Below, piece after piece: positions 3,553-56,162 of a stretch of 64,000 nt of DNA (within the stretch, counting starts at the first letter, position 1; each line of letters begins with the position of its first letter). The translations under genes were made by a program, and so were the position numbers. The notes below the pieces were generated by a model. It made no database searches. It saw only the letters and a list, made by a program, of their open reading frames with translations, and was not told the DNA's origin. This DNA is from Bacteroidales bacterium (GTDB lineage: Bacteria > Bacteroidota > Bacteroidia > Bacteroidales > UBA932), in assembly GCA_017439305.1 (NCBI GenBank), contig JAFSJK010000063.1, forward strand, positions 14,367-78,366. The letters run 5' to 3'.

Positions 3553-4689
3553 TTATTTCACGAAGGAGGCGACAAGGCGTCCCCATTCGTCGTTTTCGCG
3601 GATGCCGGTGAAAGCGGCGGAGCCGGGGCCCCACGCATAGAAGGGAACGGCGATGCCGTTATGGCTTTCGCTGGCGAAGAACACGCCGATCTCCCCTTTC
3701 TCCAGGTTCCCGTCCTGCAGGGTAAGGCAGCCGGTGGCATGGTCGGCGGTCATCACCACCAGGGTGTGCCCGTCGGCGGCCGCCCACTGGAGGACATCAC
3801 CCAGGGTACGGTCGAAGTCCAGGAGTTCCTCCATGGCCTTCGCGATGTCGTTCCCGTGCAGCCAGTCGTCAATGCAGGAGCCTTCCAGCATCATCACGAA
3901 GCCTTTTTCTCCGCTTTCACGGGACAGGATGTCCAGACCGCGGGCCACGGTGTGGCGGTACAGGTCGCCTCGCTCCATCACCACGGGCAGGTTATCCGGG
4001 GCCAGGATGCCGATGACCGGCAGTTCCGCCTGCATCAGTTCCTCTTCCGTACGGGCCACGGTATAGCCTGCCGCAGCCATTTCCTTCGTAATGTCACGCC
4101 CGTCGGTCCGCTTCACGGTGAACCAGTCCAGACCGCCGCCGGAGAGATAGTCCACGCCGCATTCCACATAATCTGCGATGAGGTCCTCCTGGTTATAGCG
4201 GTACTCGTTGTGGCAGCAGAAATCGCAAGGGGTCGCATCGGCGAAGTGGCAGGTGACGGCCACGCCGGTTTTCTTGCCCAGTTCCCGGGCCTTTACCAGG
4301 ATGGAAGGGATGTCCGTGCTGTCCGGCGCCGTACCCACATGGCTGTAGGCCGTCTTCTTGCCGGAAGAGAGGGCCGTTCCGCCCGCTCCGGAGTCCGTGA
4401 TGAGTTCATTGGTGCACCAGGTGCGGGACAGACCCACGTGGGTCATGTTGTCCAGATTCAGCTTGCCGTGGTTCAGCACCCAAGCGCAACTGACCTGTTC
4501 CAGGCCCATGCCGTCGCCGATCATGAAGATGATGTTGCGCACCTCGTTGTCCTGCGGCGGTTCCGCGACGGAAACGATGTCGTAGGTGTGCGGGGTGGCA
4601 TAATACTGCAGGGCGGCCTCTTTCTCCTTCTGCTTGCAGGAGACGGCCAGCAGGCCTGCGAACAAGGCAAGGACGGTAATCTTTCTCAT
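3553..4689 (-). CDS. Alkaline phosphatase (lipoprotein)
   Basis: Start reset to MRKITVLALFAGLLAVSC; NIIFMIGDGMG, TDSGAGGTA (Ser nucleophile), EGSCIDDWLH, TADH. Confidence 0.9.
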   Translation of the reverse strand: MRKITVLALFAGLLAVSCKQKEKEAALQYYATPHTYDIVSVAEPPQDNEVRNIIFMIGDGMGLEQVSCAWVLNHGKLNLDNMTHVGLSRTWCTNELITDSGAGGTALSSGKKTAYSHVGTAPDSTDIPSILVKARELGKKTGVAVTCHFADATPCDFCCHNEYRYNQEDLIADYVECGVDYLSGGGLDWFTVKRTDGRDITKEMAAAGYTVARTEEELMQAELPVIGILAPDNLPVVMERGDLYRHTVARGLDILSRESGEKGFVMMLEGSCIDDWLHGNDIAKAMEELLDFDRTLGDVLQWAAADGHTLVVMTADHATGCLTLQDGNLEKGEIGVFFASESHNGIAVPFYAWGPGSAAFTGIRENDEWGRLVASFVK

Positions 4690-34934: not shown

Positions 34935-35026
34935 AAGGAATTCTTTTTCAAGTGGTCAGTATCACAAAGATACGCTTTCCCCTCCGTATTTGCAACCCCG
35001 CCCATCTGCCTCCCGGGCCGGACGTT

Positions 35027-35065
35027 TGGCGCAAGTGGTAGCAAATGCCGGCGGCACCTGCATCA
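35027..35065. repeat. Degenerate REP-like doublet
   Basis: TGGCGCAAGTG ... CACCTGCATCA; upstream flank resembles that of the 35642 array. Confidence 0.45.
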
Positions 35066-35081
35066 AAGGACGAAAGACCAT

Positions 35082-35116
35082 AAAAAAGGAGGCTGGCTCA
35101 ATTTGAGTCAGCCTCC
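35082..35116 (-). terminator. Intrinsic terminator
   Basis: GGAGGCTGGCTCAA/TTGAGTCAGCCTCC stem, T6 on the minus strand. Confidence 0.7.
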
Positions 35117-35179
35117 TGTTCCCGAGTCTCCATTTATCGGTTCCGGTCATGGAGACCCGTCAACGGACTGTCTTCCGAA

Positions 35180-35524
35180 TCATTCCTCCCCGGACAAGCC
35201 CTCCAGGATTCCGTCAACCGCACTCCCGACACGTTCCAAGGCCTTTTTGGTGATGGCCTTCGTGAAACGTGCACTGAGCTGCGCCACCTCCTTGAGCTGC
35301 TCGTTGGTGAAGTCACAATCCTTCGCCGTTTCGGTAATCGCATCGAACTTGGCTTTGAGAGCATCGATATCCTTGACATCAAAGCTATCCTTTTCCACGG
35401 TCTTGCAGAGCGATTCCATCTGGGAGATAACCTTTTCCTCCTTCGACTGGCAGGAAGTCAGCAAAGAGAAAGCAAAAAGCAGGGCGACGACTGTCGCGAC
35501 CTTGGTAAAAACGTTGATTCTCAT
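35180..35524 (-). CDS. Small helical lipoprotein, unknown function
   Basis: MRINVFTKVATVVALLFAFSLLTSC lipobox; -7 box at 35549-35556. Confidence 0.75.
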   Translation of the reverse strand: MRINVFTKVATVVALLFAFSLLTSCQSKEEKVISQMESLCKTVEKDSFDVKDIDALKAKFDAITETAKDCDFTNEQLKEVAQLSARFTKAITKKALERVGSAVDGILEGLSGEE

Positions 35525-35641
35525 AAGACTGAAGATTGATTTGTGTGACAAAGATAAGCATTTCAACGGCTTTCGCAAAGCCCGTCACTCCCCGGCCTTC
35601 GCAACCCAGCCCAAGGCTATCAGCATCCCGGGTCTGGCGTT

Positions 35642-35850
35642 TGGCGCAGGTGGGGATGCTCGCTGGCGCAGGTGGGGATGCTTGCTGGCGCAGGTGGGGA
35701 AAAGAGGGTAGGACCTGCGCCACTGGAGAGCGCACAGACACGATTTGTGGCGCAGGTCCCTTACCCAAAAACCCACCTGCGCCACGACCAGGTCTCACCT
35801 GCACCAAAAATTGGCCTCACCTGCGCCAAAACCAAGTTCCACCTGCGCCA
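35642..35850. repeat. REP/REPIN-like palindromic array, copy 1
   Basis: Core TGGCGCAGGT(G/C) forward at 35642, 35664, 35686, 35748; reverse at 35712, 35774, 35796, 35818, 35840. Confidence 0.85.
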
Positions 35851-35879
35851 AAACCAGGTTCTTTCGCTCCATTATTGAC

Positions 35880-36827
35880 TTACCCCTCCCCTTTTCCGAT
35901 ACTGGGGCAGGCTTTTCCAAGCAGCCGGGCGACGGTATCCTGTCCCAGACCGAAGCAACGGGCAAGCTGGGACATGGAGGTTCGGTAAGAGCGGTAGACA
36001 TATGGGAGCAGCCGGGCTTTCTTCTCCCGGGGAAGTTCCAAAAGAGAGCAGTGGAACCAGCCTTTCGCGATGCTGTCGATAGTTTTGAGCATTTCGGTAT
36101 CGTTTTGCCTCTGCCGGGGATTGTCGACCAGCTTCTGATGCATCTCGGCCATGTTGACCGTGCCAAGGGTCTTGAGGAAGAACGCCTGATCGTTTCCGAA
36201 GGCGGATTCCAGGTAGGCGTGGTCACAGGCCGATGCGGGTTCCAGCCCGCCATCGGCATTGACGACCCAGGGAAGACCGTCCAGGGAATCATGGGTATGG
36301 AAGCAGGCCTCCTTTTCCCTCCGCGTCATGGTATCTGCCCTGCGGAAGCCATCGGAGACCTTTCCCTGGCAGAACATGCCGCGGTAGCCGGACCATCGGT
36401 AATCTTCCACCCTGGACAGGGCGTCCAGCGCATTTTTGGGGACATAGGCCAAGGTGTTCCGGAGATACCAGTCGGAATCCAGGTAGAGGGCGACGGCCGA
36501 TGTATGCTTCAGTACCTTCCGCTGCCGATATTTTCTGCTGTAATACTGGGAATACATCCGCAGCCATTCCACCTTGAAGGCATCGGCGTCGTCTTGACCG
36601 GAGGCGAGGATGGTGGCATGGCCGTGGTTGGACATGGCGATGTGGATGACGACGATTACATTCTTCCGCCGGGCGCAAATGAAAATGTACTTGACCATTA
36701 CGTCATAATCCTCGTCATCCCGGCAGAGTACCAGTTGCGTCATCCCTTCCAGACTGACATGGTACGGGTAGACTTTCCGGACACTGCCGTCCGGCAGCGT
36801 CCGGGTACAGATCCTCTCGAAAGCCAT
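35880..36827 (-). mobile_element. REP-associated tyrosine transposase (RAYT, Y1 HUH) with C-terminal HTH-like tail
   Basis: YHVSLEG, MSNHGH (HUH), LAYVPKNA (catalytic Tyr), DYRWSGY; flanked by repeat arrays. Confidence 0.8.
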
Positions 36828-36829
36828 AT

Positions 36830-37285
36830 TCAGTTGGCTTTCTTACCGCGTGACGGCTGAATCGGAAAAACCGTCAGTTCCCGACCGTCGACCAGAGGTC
36901 CGCCGACCAAGGGCCGGGACACGGTCCTGTCATCGAATCCATACGACCTTTTGATGGCCGCCGCAAACGCTTCAAGTTTGGGGATGGCATCGAACATCAT
37001 CAGACTCCAAAACTCTTCCGCCCGTTCATATGGCTGGGCACATCCCAGAATCTCCGCCATCGATACCAGCCGGACGGCCTGGCAGATTGCCTGGTCTCTG
37101 GTCCGCCACAGATATTCTGTCATGTCGTGAACCAACTGCTTGAGCCTCCTGTCGCACTCGGCAGCGTGGCCCAACTGTGCCCGGCAATTCTCCGCAGCGA
37201 ACTCTTCCTCTGTAACAAACGCCTCTTCCGTTGAGAAATGGAACTTCCCATCATCGTCCACCAGCACTTCCAAAAACTTTTTCAT
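36830..37285 (-). CDS. Hypothetical protein directly upstream of RAYT
   Basis: Start MKKFLEVLV; stop 2 bp before the RAYT ATG. Confidence 0.65.
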   Translation of the reverse strand: MKKFLEVLVDDDGKFHFSTEEAFVTEEEFAAENCRAQLGHAAECDRRLKQLVHDMTEYLWRTRDQAICQAVRLVSMAEILGCAQPYERAEEFWSLMMFDAIPKLEAFAAAIKRSYGFDDRTVSRPLVGGPLVDGRELTVFPIQPSRGKKAN

Positions 37286-37569
37286 GGCAAGATTTATTAT
37301 TTTACCGGGCCGCCACCGTTGGCGGTCCAAGTGCAAGGATAGGGATTATCCATATTTAGCCGTTCGGAAAACGAAATGGACTTCTTGCAATCTAACGGGT
37401 TGGCCAGCAGAATTTTATGACGACGTTGGATGTTGTCTCTTTTTTCGAAAAACAGCATATCTTTTTGATTGTCAGCAAATTGCGAATGCCGGACAGGAGC
37501 AAGAATGTACAGCAGCAGCCATTGCCCTGCCAGATGGTGTCTTCCGTACGGGCTCGAGGCGGGGGAATG

Positions 37570-37778
37570 CGGCGCAAGTGGGGATGTTTGCTGGAGCAGG
37601 TGGGAGCAAATATTGGCGCAGGTGGAGAAAAGAGGGTAGGACCTGCGCCATTGGAGAGCGCACAGACACGATTTGTGGCGCAGGTCCCCTACCCAAAAAC
37701 CCACCTGCGCCACGATCAGGCCTCACCTGCACCAAAACCAGGCCTCACCTGCACCAAAACCAGGTCTCACCTGCGCCA
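37570..37778. repeat. REP/REPIN-like palindromic array, copy 2
   Basis: Forward cores 37570, 37592, 37614, 37676; reverse 37640, 37702, 37724, 37746, 37768; central ~90 bp nearly identical to copy 1. Confidence 0.85.
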
Positions 37779-37845
37779 AAACTTTGGCCTCCCCTGTTCT
37801 CCGAGCCGGTCGGCACCTATGATTAGGCTTCACCTGCACCCAGGG

Positions 37846-39306
37846 CTAGCCGGCCTGGACCGCATGCCGCTCGACGACCTTGCCGTCGCGGTGGAGTTCG
37901 AAACAGTCGGAGCCGTCGGCGAGCGTGACGCGGTGGAGACGGAGTGAAGGGTCGGAGCGCACGGCGCTCTTCGCAGCGGCGAGGGCCTTTTCTCCGTCAG
38001 AATAACGGAAGAAAAGGGGGTCCTGGGGCGCACTGCCAAGGGGCAAGGACTCCGGGGCCGCACCGCCAGAGGACAGGGATTCCGGACCAGGGGACACAAT
38101 GGTCCCGGCCGGCCCTTCTCCCGCAGGTTTTTTCCTTTCATAGGCGAGCAGGCGGGCGTCTTCGGCCCGGGCGCGTTCAGCGTCGTATTGGCGGTCCCAT
38201 TCGCGATAGTATTCCATTTTCGGGTCCTCGAAAAGGGACATCTGTTCGGTGGTTTCGTGGGTAAGTTTCGAGACGCCGAGGCCCACCTGGCGGAGGGGCG
38301 ACACTCCGTCCCAGACCTCGGGAAGCATCCGGCGGGCCTCGTTCAGGATGACGGCCGTGATGTCCGTCGGCTGGCCCGTCTGGCACTGCCTCTGGGCGAC
38401 GGAGAAGTCACTGTACTTGATGAACATGGACACGGTCGATGCACGGAAGCCGTCCCGGCGGATGCGGTGGGCGACGATGCAGGCCACGTTGAAGAGAGCC
38501 CGGTCGATGTCCTTCGGATCGGACAGGTCCTTCGGGAAGGTCCGCTCCGCGCTGTAGCTCTTGGCCTCCTGGACCTCCGTTTCCACCGGGGAATCATCCC
38601 GGCCGTTCGCATTCTCGTGCAGCTGTACGGCGAACTTCTGACCCACTAGGCGGGTAAGCTGCCCCACACTGAGCCGTGCCAGATCCCCGATGGTGCGGAT
38701 GCCATAGGCGAGAAGCCGCTCCTCGGTCTTTTTCCCGACCCAAAGGAGGTCTCGCACGCCCAGGGGCCACATCTTCTCCCGGATCTCGCTCTCCCAGAGG
38801 GTATGGACCTTGTCCGGCTTCTCGAAGTCCGACGCCATCTTCGCCAGAAGCTTGTTCGAGCCCACACCGACATTGACCGTGAACCCCAGGCGGGACTTGA
38901 TTTCGTCCTTGAGGCGGGTGGCGACCGCCACCGGATCCTGCGCCCCGCATCGGTACGTCATGTCGATGAAACACTCGTCGATGGAAAACTGCTGCAGCAC
39001 CGGAGAATAGCTCCGGCAGATGGCGATGAACCCTTCGGAACAGCGCTTATACCATTCCCAATCCCCATGTACGATAACCAGTTGCGGGCATATCCGCAGC
39101 GCCATCGACACCGGGATGGCCGTTCGGATGCCTAGCTTCTTCGCCGGCATCGACGCGGCCGAAACAATGCTGCGCCGGTCGTTCGGGTCCCCGGACACGA
39201 CCGACGGGACCAGCCGGATATCCTGCCCTCCTTCCATGACGATCTTCACCGCCGACCAACTGACGAAAGCGGAATTCACATCGATATGGAAAATGACCCG
39301 GGGCAT
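37846..39306 (-). CDS. dinB: DNA polymerase IV (Y family) with C-terminal extension
   Basis: HIDVNSAF, SIDECF, NKLLAKMAS, KPD, LWVGKKT, clamp motif QMSLF. Confidence 0.92.
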   Translation of the reverse strand: MPRVIFHIDVNSAFVSWSAVKIVMEGGQDIRLVPSVVSGDPNDRRSIVSAASMPAKKLGIRTAIPVSMALRICPQLVIVHGDWEWYKRCSEGFIAICRSYSPVLQQFSIDECFIDMTYRCGAQDPVAVATRLKDEIKSRLGFTVNVGVGSNKLLAKMASDFEKPDKVHTLWESEIREKMWPLGVRDLLWVGKKTEERLLAYGIRTIGDLARLSVGQLTRLVGQKFAVQLHENANGRDDSPVETEVQEAKSYSAERTFPKDLSDPKDIDRALFNVACIVAHRIRRDGFRASTVSMFIKYSDFSVAQRQCQTGQPTDITAVILNEARRMLPEVWDGVSPLRQVGLGVSKLTHETTEQMSLFEDPKMEYYREWDRQYDAERARAEDARLLAYERKKPAGEGPAGTIVSPGPESLSSGGAAPESLPLGSAPQDPLFFRYSDGEKALAAAKSAVRSDPSLRLHRVTLADGSDCFELHRDGKVVERHAVQAG

Positions 39307-53279: not shown

Positions 53280-54311
53280 ATGAAAGCAATCCAGATCAGT
53301 CAGCCTTTCGCCCTGGACCTCATCGCCCTCGAGCAGCCGGTCTGCGGGGAAGAGGAGGTATTGCTGAAAATCCGCTACGTGGGGTTCTGCGGAAGCGACC
53401 TGAACACCTTCCGGGGCGGAAACGCCCTGGCAAAACAGCCAGTCATCCCCGGTCACGAAATCGGGGCCGAAATCATCCGGACGGGATCCCGGGTCCCGGC
53501 GGAACTCCGCCCCGGCATGACGGTGACCGTCAATCCCTATACGAACTGCGGGAACTGCGCCGCGTGCCGGAACCGCCGCTACAATGCCTGCGAGCACAAC
53601 GAAACGCTGGGCGTCCAGCGGGATGGCGCCATGCGGGAGTACTTTTCCGTCCCTTGGCAAAAAGTCATTGTGGCTGAAGGCCTTACCGCCAGGCAATGTG
53701 CGCTGGTGGAACCGATGAGCGTGGGATTCCACGCCGTGAGCCGGGCCCAGGTGACGGACAACGATACCGTCGTCGTTCTGGGATGCGGCATGGTGGGCGC
53801 CGGCGCCATCGTCCGGGCATCGCTGCGCGGGGCCACGGTCATCGCCGTGGATGTGGACGGGAAGAAACTGGAAGTCGCGCGGATCCTCGGTGCCGCCCAC
53901 ACGGTCAACGCCGCGACGGACGATGTCCGGGAGCGGGTGGCCGGGCTGACGGAAGGCCGGATGGCCGATGTCGTCATCGAAGCGGTCGGAAGCCCCCTGA
54001 CCCAGAACCAGGCCATCGACTGCGTCGGTTTCACCGGACGGGTCACCTTTATCGGCTATGCCCAGGAAGATACGGTGTTCCATTCCCGCCTGTTTGTTCA
54101 GAAGGAACTGACCATCAGCGGCTCCCGCAATGCGCAGCCGGAGGATTTCAGGGCTGTCATCCAGTATCTCCGGCGGGGAACCTGCCCCTACGACCGGCTG
54201 ATATCCGCCGTCGTCCAACCCGAAGAGGCCGCGGCCGCCATGGCCGCCTGGCACGCGGATCCCGGGAAAGTGTTCCGCATCCTGGTTGAATTCAATTCCA
54301 ACGAGTCATGA
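53280..54311 (+). CDS. Zn-dependent dehydrogenase (L-galactonate dehydrogenase-like)
   Basis: GFCGSD, PGHEIG, CGNCAACRNRRYNAC, GCGMVG, GSRNA. Confidence 0.85.
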   Translation: MKAIQISQPFALDLIALEQPVCGEEEVLLKIRYVGFCGSDLNTFRGGNALAKQPVIPGHEIGAEIIRTGSRVPAELRPGMTVTVNPYTNCGNCAACRNRRYNACEHNETLGVQRDGAMREYFSVPWQKVIVAEGLTARQCALVEPMSVGFHAVSRAQVTDNDTVVVLGCGMVGAGAIVRASLRGATVIAVDVDGKKLEVARILGAAHTVNAATDDVRERVAGLTEGRMADVVIEAVGSPLTQNQAIDCVGFTGRVTFIGYAQEDTVFHSRLFVQKELTISGSRNAQPEDFRAVIQYLRRGTCPYDRLISAVVQPEEAAAAMAAWHADPGKVFRILVEFNSNES

Positions 54312-55240
54312 TCTACCGGAAACTGGGAAACACCGGCCTGAAGGTGTCCGTCATCGGATACGGCGCGTCGTCCCTCGGCGGCGTCTTCCACGACTTTGAC
54401 GAGCAGAGAGGCATCGAGTCCGTCTTCACTGCCATCGAAGCCGGCATCAACCTTTTCGATGTCTCCCCCTATTATGGGTATTACAAGGCGGAAAAGGTGC
54501 TCGGGAAAGCCCTGAAAAGTATCCCCAGGGGCAAGTTCTACCTGTCCACGAAAGTGGGCCGGTACGGAGAGGACGGCCACAATACCTGGGATTATTCCGC
54601 GGAACGGGCTACGCGCAGCGTGTATGAAAGCCTGGAACGGCTGAACATCGACTATATCGACATCATCAATGTCCACGACATCGAGTTCGCGGACCTGCAA
54701 CAGGTGGCGGACGAGACCATCCCGGCCCTGGTGAGGCTGAAGGAGGAAGGCGTGGTGAAGCACGTCGGCTGCACGGATCTTCAGCTGGAGAATCTCCGGT
54801 GGATGGTGGAGCACGTCCCGGAAGGAACCCTCGGCAGCGTACTGAACTTCTGCCACTATTGCCTCAACGACGACAAACTGGTGGATTTCCTGGACTTTTT
54901 CGAGGCGCACCACATCGGCGTAATCAACGCCTCCCCTTTCTCGATGGGTCTGCTCACCCGACGCGGCGTCCCGGTCTGGCATCCTGCGCCGAAGCCCCTG
55001 GTCGAAGCCTGCGCCCGGGCGGCGGAGCATTGCGAGGCCAAGGGCTATCCCATTGAAAAACTGGCGATGCAGTATGCCCTGCAGAACAACCGCATCGCTT
55101 CCACGGTCTTCAGTACGACGCGGCCGGAGAATGTTCTCCGGAACGTGGAATACGTCAATGAACCCATGGACTTGCAGCTGCTGCAGGAAGTGCAGGAAAT
55201 CATCGGCGACCAGCGGCGCGTCTCCTGGGCCAATACGTGA
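54308..55240 (+). CDS. Aldo/keto reductase (L-galactose dehydrogenase-like)
   Basis: GYGASSLG, FDVSPYYG, STKVGRY, VHDIEF, NASPFSMGLLT. Confidence 0.85.
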   Translation: MIYRKLGNTGLKVSVIGYGASSLGGVFHDFDEQRGIESVFTAIEAGINLFDVSPYYGYYKAEKVLGKALKSIPRGKFYLSTKVGRYGEDGHNTWDYSAERATRSVYESLERLNIDYIDIINVHDIEFADLQQVADETIPALVRLKEEGVVKHVGCTDLQLENLRWMVEHVPEGTLGSVLNFCHYCLNDDKLVDFLDFFEAHHIGVINASPFSMGLLTRRGVPVWHPAPKPLVEACARAAEHCEAKGYPIEKLAMQYALQNNRIASTVFSTTRPENVLRNVEYVNEPMDLQLLQEVQEIIGDQRRVSWANT

Positions 55241-55244
55241 TGCC

Positions 55245-56162
55245 ATGAAAATCATCGACGCTCATACCCATCTCTGGCTTAGCCAGGATACCGTCGTGAA
55301 CGGGAAAGCGATCCGGTCCCTCCCGAACGGCCGCAGCCTGTTCATGGGCGAAGAAGTGCAGATGCTCCCGCCGTTCCTGGTGGACAGTGTCAACAGCGCC
55401 GAAGTCCTCCTGTCCAACATGGACTATGCGCAGGTGTCCGCGGCGGTCGTCACCCAGGAATTCATCGACGGGCCGCAGAACGATTACCTGGAGGACGTGA
55501 AGCGCCGCTATCCGGACCGGTTCTTCGTCTTCGGGATGTGCGAATTCCGCCGGCCGGACTTCCTTCCCGAAGCCATTGACCTGATGGACAGGGGCTTCCG
55601 GGGAATCAAGATTCCCGCCGCCCGGCTGCTCCTCCCGGAAGGCCGGGTGCGGCTGGACAGTCCCGAAATGATGCGGCTGTTCCACCTCATGGAAGACCGG
55701 GGCCTGATTCTGCACGTGGAATTGGCCGACGGAAACCTGCAGGTCGGGGAGATGGAGACGGTCATCGCCGAATGCCCCCGCCTGAAGGTGGTCATCGGCC
55801 ATTTCGGGATGGTCACGCGTCCCGGCTGGATGGATCAGATCCGGCTGGCCCGGCATCCGTCCGTGTATGTGGAGAGCGGCGGCATCACCTGGCTTTTCAA
55901 TGCCGAATTCTACCCCTTCCCCTCGGCTGTGCGCGCCATCCGGGAAGCGGCGGACGAAGTGGGAATCGACAAGCTGATGTGGGGCTCCGACTATCCCCGC
56001 ACCATCACGGCCATCACTTACAGGATGTCCTACGATTTCATCGTGAAAAGCGACCTCCTCTCCGCTGGCGAAAAGGAGAAGTTCCTCTGTACCAACGCCC
56101 GGAACCTTTTCGGCTTCCGGAACCTGCCGGACCTGCCCTATATCCGGAACATGTCGGAATGA
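55245..56162 (+). CDS. Amidohydrolase_2 family lactonase (L-galactonolactonase-like)
   Basis: IDAHTHLW, IGHFG, WGSDYP. Confidence 0.82.
   Translation: MKIIDAHTHLWLSQDTVVNGKAIRSLPNGRSLFMGEEVQMLPPFLVDSVNSAEVLLSNMDYAQVSAAVVTQEFIDGPQNDYLEDVKRRYPDRFFVFGMCEFRRPDFLPEAIDLMDRGFRGIKIPAARLLLPEGRVRLDSPEMMRLFHLMEDRGLILHVELADGNLQVGEMETVIAECPRLKVVIGHFGMVTRPGWMDQIRLARHPSVYVESGGITWLFNAEFYPFPSAVRAIREAADEVGIDKLMWGSDYPRTITAITYRMSYDFIVKSDLLSAGEKEKFLCTNARNLFGFRNLPDLPYIRNMSE

Follow-up and report, generated by a model that had tools for sequence, protein, structure and literature searches.

A two-gene cassette that lies between two arrays of palindromic sites was investigated in a 64,000-nt stretch of DNA (hereafter, the window; contig JAFSJK010000063.1, positions 14,367 to 78,366, coded G000:C59:14367-78366) from a rumen Bacteroidales metagenome-assembled genome of about 3 Mb and 58% G+C. 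We consider it probable that the cassette is a TIRtron- or REPtron-like element, namely an operon of a small partner gene and a gene for a RAYT-like Y1 HUH nuclease, flanked by the nuclease's own recognition module. This interpretation rests on the fold and catalytic residues of the nuclease, purifying selection, the architecture of the locus, co-variation between motif and protein, concerted flanks, polymorphism in unit number and orientation, and the presence or absence of the cassette in relatives. The original prediction, made from the sequence alone, had described a RAYT transposase and a partner open reading frame (ORF) between two direct repeat arrays of ~210 bp; the ORFs, the motifs and the arrays were located where it had placed them, and every detail checked agreed.

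The 315-amino-acid (aa) nuclease carries the motifs SNHGH (H68 and H70), LAYVPKNA (Y128) and YRWSGY. H68, H70 and Y128 were invariant in 26 close and 30 wider sequences, and the HUH motif of the family was SNH[G/A/S]H, in which the middle residue is small and not hydrophobic. In the AlphaFold2 model built on 26 homologues (predicted local distance difference test score, pLDDT, 83), Y128 sits in a predicted helix (residues 119-134) C-terminal to the HUH motif. In profile alignment, it matches the Y motif of PDB 4er8, a structure of the REP-associated transposase from E. coli in complex with a REP hairpin. Foldseek returned 4er8 as the best PDB match (target TM 0.62, probability 1.0), followed by ISDra2/IS608 TnpA; the top matches 4er8, 2xm3, 2xma, 2a6o and 2ec2 all had probabilities of about 1.0 and target TM of 0.5-0.64. 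When PDB sequences were searched with profiles, the close-family profile A1 gave only a weak winged helix-turn-helix (wHTH) match, and the Y1 transposases were reached by a broadened N-terminal profile, whose PDB matches were all Y1 transposases, including 4er8 at E 0.009. The alignment with 4er8 covered the HUH, Y and W..S segments, with YRWSGY placed against DWPFSTF, whereas the IS200-type matches reached the HUH part only.

The window protein gave no match to PF01797 (Y1_Tnp) at E <= 0.1, the gathering threshold of this family being 23 bits. The paralogues at ~50% identity scored 17.8-22.8 bits and the paralogue on contig C2 (25% identity) scored 24 bits. Distant full-length relatives obtained by an exhaustive profile search matched PF01797 in 10 of 10 cases (17.5-30.6 bits), four of which passed the threshold. 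Judged from these scores, membership of the window protein in PF01797 is transitive, through its relatives. As 4er8 was the best fold match, H68, H70 and Y128 were invariant, relatives matched PF01797 and the broadened profile reached Y1 transposases, sequence and model together place the protein in the Y1 HUH superfamily, as RAYT-like rather than IS200-like. This placement agreed with the original prediction of a Y1 HUH protein nearer to RAYT than to IS200 TnpA, for which the best fold match and the broadened-profile alignment to 4er8 spoke. The HTH-like tail, which had also been predicted, was recovered in part. The C-terminal ~50 residues were helical in the model and gave HTH-like matches, all of them weak (HTH_PafC, E 0.011; wHTH of PDB 5j6x, E 0.14; and others), and the tail of the window protein had no Pfam match to Bac_DnaA_C, HTH_23 or HTH_28, the named tail families of TIRYT proteins. 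Remote Atlas clusters were found to combine Y1_Tnp with HTH_23. The nuclease gene was under purifying selection, with a ratio of nonsynonymous to synonymous substitution rates (dN/dS) of 0.08-0.10.

The partner gene was under purifying selection as well (dN/dS 0.13-0.18). Its product had 104 homologues, which belong to no known family; searches of Pfam, NCBIfam, PHROGs and PADLOC gave no match, and the Atlas search was also empty. The AlphaFold2 model of the partner (pLDDT 86) comprised an N-terminal beta-hairpin followed by three long helices, and the fold search against PDB gave no match with E below 2. The distribution of the gene was examined in 80 related loci from other rumen Bacteroidales genomes; 62 of these had, upstream of the nuclease gene, an ORF of 70 aa or more that ran up to its start. 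The partner-type N-terminus, MKK.LEV, opened or lay within about 50 of these 62 ORFs. In the second major clade, the upstream ORF was of 117 aa, and profile-profile comparison showed it to be homologous to the 151-aa partner (hhalign 95.5%, E 1.5e-8). Because the upstream ORF recurred and the versions of both clades were homologous, the two-gene operon is, on sequence grounds, typical across the family. The partner is presumably a cofactor or regulator. As a separate observation, some clades (L064, L054, L067, L069 and L106) had the downstream module ~600 bp past the nuclease gene. In L064, this gap (3870-4565) held a 231-aa ORF with an N-terminus, MKTLLHICELDDGRLDF, resembling the N-terminal hairpin of the partner and with an HRDC- or helix-hairpin-helix-like C-terminus, which may be a second accessory gene.

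The two arrays of the window were direct copies of each other with 93% identity over 169 nt, and their central 90 bp showed exactly three differences. Each array was a quasi-palindrome built of 11-bp sites. It opened with three to four forward sites spaced 22 bp apart, continued with an inner pair, one reverse and one forward, that enclosed a spacer of ~25 nt, and closed with four reverse sites at 22 bp. The sequence TGGCGCAGGTG, allowing at most one mismatch, occurred 21 times in the window against 1.47 expected, and this count was reached in 0 of 100 shuffles. The left array was predicted to form a single long hairpin on either strand, with free energies (dG) of -78 and -75 kcal/mol and z of about -9. 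Other kinds of element were considered and rejected. A CRISPR-like array would have unique spacers, and the units here were half-sites of a palindrome without any. For an invertible promoter of the Bacteroidales type, no TAnnTTTG promoter was seen by eye within the module, and the flipped spacer of 25-29 nt (see below) was too short. A plasmid or phage origin was dismissed as no replication, mobilisation or phage genes were present in the vicinity.

Besides the window protein, the same genome encodes three paralogues at 48-50% identity, on contigs C31, C58 and C18 (the last with an in-frame TGA), and six more distant ones. Each of these three lay between two copies of its own module, and their sites, GTACAAGGT, GATCAAGGT and GGGCAAGGT, were all different, the own site of the window cassette being GGCGCAGGT. 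At the 80 related loci, modules were found on both sides of the gene in 47, on one side in 30 and on neither side in 3. The predicted arrangement of a gene flanked by its own palindromic repeats was thus present in the window and recurred with homologues in other Bacteroidales genomes. The invariant element of the module was a pair of inverted pairs, with arm starts 24 +/- 1 nt apart (198 distinct pairs) and complementarity limited to 10-11 nt. The length of the module was quantised by clade at 93, 95, 96 or 106-109 nt, and was exactly 97 nt in the window's own subclade. All sites shared a common AGGT core beside about 4 variable bases, and the variable part tracked the protein tree: one clade (support 100/99) had ACCTT.. 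or ACCTGG.. sites in minimal modules, the clade containing the window had ACCTGCG[C/A] sites with outer units phased at 22 bp, and each site type had essentially one origin on the tree.

The window motif formed 7 arrays in the genome of about 3 Mb, 5 of which were gene-less (C3:33734 and C80:44245, 49757, 53544 and 55587). The modules of the three paralogues were private, being confined to the two flanks with no gene-less copies. The dispersed REP/REPIN-type population that had been expected from the window sequence was not borne out by these counts.

The flanking modules showed several kinds of change. The window and its 93% orthologue, L025, occupied a common chromosomal site. Their orthologous cores were just 81-83% alike, whereas the two flanking cores inside one locus were 97% (window) and 95% (L025) alike. 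As cores were alike within a locus but diverged between orthologous loci, the sequences suggest that the flanking modules evolve in concert. The number of units differed among strains, a clean 22-nt deletion and a centre-deleted array being seen; in the right array, one 22-nt unit was missing in another strain. The two flanks were in direct orientation in the window and many other loci, and inverted in L046, L047, L053, L071, L076 and L103. L049, a near-identical sister of L046 and L047, had its flanks in the other orientation. In L042, L043 and L027, the central spacer alone was flipped, and the loops kept their orientation.

Comparison with relatives also supported, indirectly, movement of the two-gene block. 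In the sister species G007, whose DinB was 85% identical, dinB was followed by 137 bp and then by the small ORF, the GFO/IDH gene and the epimerase gene that also occur in the window, and no cassette was present. The synteny check around dinB proposed in the original prediction thus yielded the dinB neighbours without the cassette. The whole block 35000-37840, including the arrays and a 115-aa gene, was absent from G007, and no close nuclease homologue was found in that genome. Conversely, P0012, an orthologue at 82% identity, lay in an unrelated neighbourhood, where homology to the window extended no further than the arrays and a 1431-bp stretch with both genes. The empty site in G007 and the cassette in another context together suggest, at the level of sequence comparison, that the block moves. 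The family was patchily distributed: of the 24 genomes sampled from the genus, 5 had it. Roughly a tenth of the copies carried an in-frame stop, among them 8 of 80 homologues, the paralogue on C18 and several matches in relatives. Recent activity was disfavoured by two observations, that each cassette type was single-copy in the genome and that 93% orthologues kept one site in several metagenomes while the synonymous divergence (dS) was 0.4-0.56. No target site or duplication was definable since the intergenic DNA of G007 was too diverged to align. For the gene-less array on C3, the same interval in G007 held unrelated DNA of similar length, and no clean insertion was demonstrable. The coordinates of the cassette and its surroundings are collected in Table 1.

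Table 1. Features of the cassette and its borders (positions in the window)
Feature	Position	Strand	Details
Y1 HUH nuclease, 315 aa, C-terminal helix-turn-helix-like tail	35880..36827	-	ORF; H68/H70 at 36618-36626, Y128 at 36444-36446
Partner gene, 151 aa from ATG (168 aa from upstream TTG)	36830..37285	-	Stop 2 nt ahead of nuclease start
Leader, A/T-richer, between right array and partner start	37286..37570	-	Presumed promoter region
Left array, 3' of operon	35642..35854	.	+ sites 35642, 35664, 35686; inner pair 35712(-), 35748(+); - sites 35774, 35796, 35818, 35840
Left array, 97-nt core module	35687-35783	.	Inside left array
Right array, 5' of operon, direct copy of left	37571..37782	.	+ sites 37571, 37592, 37614; inner pair 37640(-), 37676(+); - sites 37702, 37724, 37746, 37768
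Right array, 97-nt core module	37615-37711	.	Inside right array
Solitary extra site	37821..37840	-	~40 bp past right array, 6 bp from dinB stop
Degenerate array-edge remnant	35004..35070	.	83% identity to 35619-35653 plus one diverged site pair

A gap of 26-30 bp separated the left array from the stop codon of the nuclease ORF. The leader DNA was not conserved in the 82% orthologous cassette and contained only a weak match to a consensus promoter.

The nearest published category, as far as sequence allows the comparison, is TIRYT/TIRtron and not REP-RAYT. TIRYTs have a Y1 core with an HTH tail and long flanking repeats unrelated to GTAG REPs; they occur at about two copies per genome with ~49% identity, and their repeat families are small or absent (Di Nocera et al. 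2013, PMC3733652). TnpA-REP subclass 2.1 (Bertels group 1 in Table 1 of that study) 'probably corresponds' to TIRYT (Quentin et al. 2018, PMC6006769). The cassette shares with TIRtrons a RAYT-like Y1 core with a C-terminal tail of HTH type (weak HTH matches only in our case), the position of the gene inside its own long, partly self-complementary repeats that are not GTAG REPs, a low copy number with paralogues about 49% identical there and 48-50% here, and only small repeat families elsewhere in the genome. It differs in the HUH and Y motifs, which are NH[GAS]H and Y[IV]P[RK]NA here against NH[VYF]H and Y[IV][EH]LNP in TIRYTs. Neither the GGGGWSAS motif, present in the majority of described cases, nor the tail matches to Bac_DnaA_C, HTH_23 or HTH_28 were found. 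TIRtrons have terminal inverted repeats, whereas the flanks of the window are direct copies of a quasi-palindrome, inverted flanks being seen in the six loci listed above. The fixed-length two-pair core with half-sites phased at 22 bp is a further difference, as is the conserved small partner gene, none being mentioned in the cited RAYT/TIRYT literature. What is added to the TIRYT outline is therefore a family-wide partner gene, a phased two-pair module of fixed geometry, and concerted evolution with flipping.

In the E. coli REPtron, TnpA-REP (RayT/YafM, PDB 4er8) is flanked by REP/BIME (Ton-Hoang et al. 2012, PMC3333891; Messing et al. 2012, PMC3479197). This protein was the best structural match, with a profile alignment running through the HUH, Y and W..S segments, and in both systems the gene lies between clusters of cognate palindromes and protein and repeat co-vary. 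In contrast, REPs are hairpins of 20-40 nt with a GTAG foot and hundreds of copies, and the present cassette has an 11-bp site, 13-17 nt between the arms of a pair, 7 arrays and no GTAG foot. The protein is also twice as long, with 315 aa against 165 aa, and has a middle domain and the HTH tail; its gene is accompanied by the partner gene. The Pseudomonas REPIN-RAYT system (Bertels and Rainey; PMC3337134) resembles the cassette in that the array folds as one long hairpin of inverted halves and in that a RAYT-like gene is flanked by repeats, with one gene copy per repeat type. It differs in having a REPIN population, whereas here gene-less copies number 5 for a single type and are lacking for the remaining three, and in its steadily vertical inheritance, as against the patchy distribution in this genus.

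Several results weigh against a TIRtron/REPtron-like element. The 315-aa protein had zero matches in Pfam, NCBIfam, PHROGs and PADLOC, and the E-values of the top Foldseek matches were modest (2e-3 to 4e-2). The Y motif was Y-[IV]-P-[RK]-N-A (Y-V-P-K-N-A in the window) and not YxxxNP, N being kept and P replaced by A. By its sequence, the protein does not conform to the signatures given for any of the RAYT subclasses that Quentin et al. (2018, PMC6006769) list in their Table 1. No GTAG foot was conserved, as GTAG occurred once per array, within a loop or stem extension, and was not kept in orthologous modules; the GGGGWSAS motif had no match in either window array on both strands. The RAYT label of the original prediction held for the nearest fold, that of RAYT 4er8, and failed for the GTAG foot and for the Pfam Y1_Tnp match of the window protein. 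Mismatches in the stems showed no G-T wobble bias on either strand (32 vs 35), so that a strand-specific hairpin was not supported, and the strict 22-bp phasing and fixed spacer lengths would suit duplex binding at least as well. With few arrays (7) and private paralogue modules, the spreading of repeats, which is the defining activity of RAYTs, is at best rare. No excision, circle or empty-site junction was seen in the assembled contigs, which drop rare forms. The apparent joints 35696->37737, 37572->35642 and 35728->37670 were rejected as signs of excision or circles, strain variants of the arrays explaining them. The suggestion that the block is mobile was supported, indirectly, by the empty site in G007 and the other context; excision through the direct copies was not seen in assembled contigs, and the flanks are inverted, not direct, in several relatives.

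If the cassette is a TIRtron/REPtron-like element, the following mode of action may be proposed. The nuclease would recognise half-sites consisting of the AGGT core and about 4 clade-specific bases. The core module itself consists of two inverted pairs of the 11-bp site around a spacer, extended outward in the window's subclade by half-sites at 22-bp phasing. Recognition would probably be achieved by the HTH tail on duplex DNA at the 22-bp (two-turn) phasing and/or by the HUH domain on extruded hairpins. Since the phasing corresponds to two turns, the spacers are fixed and no G-T wobble bias was seen, half-sites could be recognised in double-stranded form, for which the HTH tail is the simplest candidate. 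Because the HUH motif and the tyrosine are invariant, and by analogy with IS608 TnpA and E. coli TnpA-REP, two Y1 enzymes known from experiment, the nuclease may nick and rejoin single strands at the module via Y128, and palindromic extrusion of the core could supply the single strand. Such nicking and rejoining would keep the flanks alike, would now and then seed gene-less intergenic copies, and would now and then move the cassette. A more elaborate scheme, in which the proteins act as a two-protein machine, the HTH tail loading several nucleases on phased duplex half-sites, the core extruding and the HUH domain resolving it by nick-and-rejoin, is considered unlikely. If true, it would explain the flipped spacers, the flipped modules and the homogenised flanks, and would represent a replication-independent route to the substrate for a relative of single-strand transposases. 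In that case, the small partner would serve as a loader or regulator of a new kind, and specificity could be read like a code from the 4 bases that vary in the site.

Three other explanations were weighed, each of which accounts for some of the observations and conflicts with others. The first takes the cassette for an active IS200/IS605-type insertion sequence, in which the arrays would be the left and right ends, the 2.1-kb unit would move by single-strand peel-and-paste, and the gene-less arrays would be miniature derivatives. The empty site in G007, the same cassette in a second context and the patchy distribution in the genus are all in keeping with it, as are the in-frame stops (8 of 80 homologues, C18 and several relatives), which resemble those of decaying insertion sequences. 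IS608 and ISDra2 indeed share the HUH/Y1 fold and hairpin-forming sequence at both ends of the unit, and the ends lie in one orientation in the window, direct copies being expected of single-strand transposition. However, multiple near-identical copies were lacking, the four paralogues being 48-50% alike with their own site each, and the 93% orthologues at the same site in several metagenomes at dS of 0.4-0.56 implied long residence. Both ends were the same palindromic module with no distinct left and right, and the orientation of the flanks varied among close relatives. The cassette carried no tnpB, the Y motif was not the Y...Q of IS200 TnpA, and the protein had extra domains. We thus regard an active insertion sequence as a doubtful explanation.

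The second is a rolling-circle-type origin and terminator, which we hold to be improbable. A nick at one array would displace a strand through the operon, and cleavage and joining at the other copy would free a single-stranded DNA circle; the half-sites would be iterons, as at the double-strand origins of rolling-circle replication plasmids and in parvoviral terminal repeats. Phased direct repeats do adjoin hairpin-forming inverted pairs, the flanks of the window are direct copies and evolve in concert, and the flip of the spacer alone in L042/L043 and L027 resembles a flip/flop product of hairpin resolution. Nevertheless, the fold was nearest to Y1 transposases and not to Rep proteins, no circular junction was seen in assembled contigs, the inverted flanks of several relatives would yield no circle, and the cassette was without a helicase or other replication gene. 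The third, a low-probability reading as well, is an immobile system. Here a DNA-binding protein with a vestigial or repurposed HUH domain would control its own operon and a few other genes through the arrays, which would act as operators, insulators or terminators. 22-bp phasing with fixed spacings would suit a protein on one face of duplex DNA, as would the missing G-T wobble bias, intergenic arrays stand beside lipoprotein genes (C80:53544 and 55587; window 35004-35854), and transcription could end in the downstream array, which begins no more than ~30 bp past the stop codon. Against this reading, the family has kept both HUH histidines and the tyrosine without exception, purifying selection on the two genes is strong, the cassette changes in presence and context, and concerted evolution and module flipping call for DNA transactions.

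Further observations were made around the arrays and the cassette. In the window, the 115-aa lipoprotein gene was bracketed by the degenerate remnant and the left array. A promoter-like stretch and array edge 5' of this gene (35543-35562, 35619-35653) were duplicated 5' of a 60-aa ORF (34959-34978, 35004-35038). As the gene was absent from the sister species G007, gene and cassette may have arrived together. The DinB ORF on the other side was of 486 aa, to which most relatives in the genus aligned only over residues 1-380/400; its C-terminal extension (37846-38140, the 3' end of dinB) was repetitive and strain-variable, with skips of 96-138 nt in other runs. On contig C80, the gene-less arrays at 53544 and 55587 (53544-55697) were 2043 bp apart with similar DNA just after each, and bracketed a 527-aa lipoprotein-like ORF (53959-55542). 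The contig stops 350 bp beyond the second of these arrays, so that further tandem units of array and lipoprotein gene may follow past its end.

Among the related loci, L017 (G009:C18:39817-43743) had modules at 1356-1465 and 3808-3917 that enclosed, in addition to the nuclease gene, a gene for a 408-aa multi-pass membrane protein on the opposite strand, and the cargo between the flanks thus varies. In L045-L049, a third module further upstream enclosed a small lipoprotein gene and a second gene on the other strand. The distant paralogues L007 and L008 (C34 and C65 of the same genome as the window) and L021 and L023 (genome G002), with 23-30% identity and ~285 aa, were PF01797-positive or borderline and had their own direct-repeat flanks of 70-110 nt, so that the design of a gene between its own repeats reaches beyond the 315-aa family; L005 and L006 had no such flanking repeats. 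The contigs of L042 and L097 were filed in Fibrobacter and Clostridia genome bins. For L042, mis-binning appears more likely than transfer, as its sequence was nearly identical to the Bacteroidales contig L043.

HTH-tailed RAYT-like genes (TIRYT, subclass 2.1) occur commonly in genomes, and the cited literature contains no assay of any of them. The Bacteroidales branch is large, as 2825 clusters at 50% identity matched the profile at E <= 0.001 and 507 did so at E <= 1e-10, and it is missed by Pfam annotation. It is unusually well suited to study, having a short site that can be counted and that differs from one protein clade to the next, a module whose geometry is fixed, and a recurrent partner without a fold match. 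Natural variants in unit number, flipped spacers, flipped modules, an empty site and gene-less copies are also on offer. Binding specificity, cleavage site and mobility are directly testable with oligonucleotides and a few purified proteins, and the family could yield programmable single-strand DNA nucleases of differing specificity.

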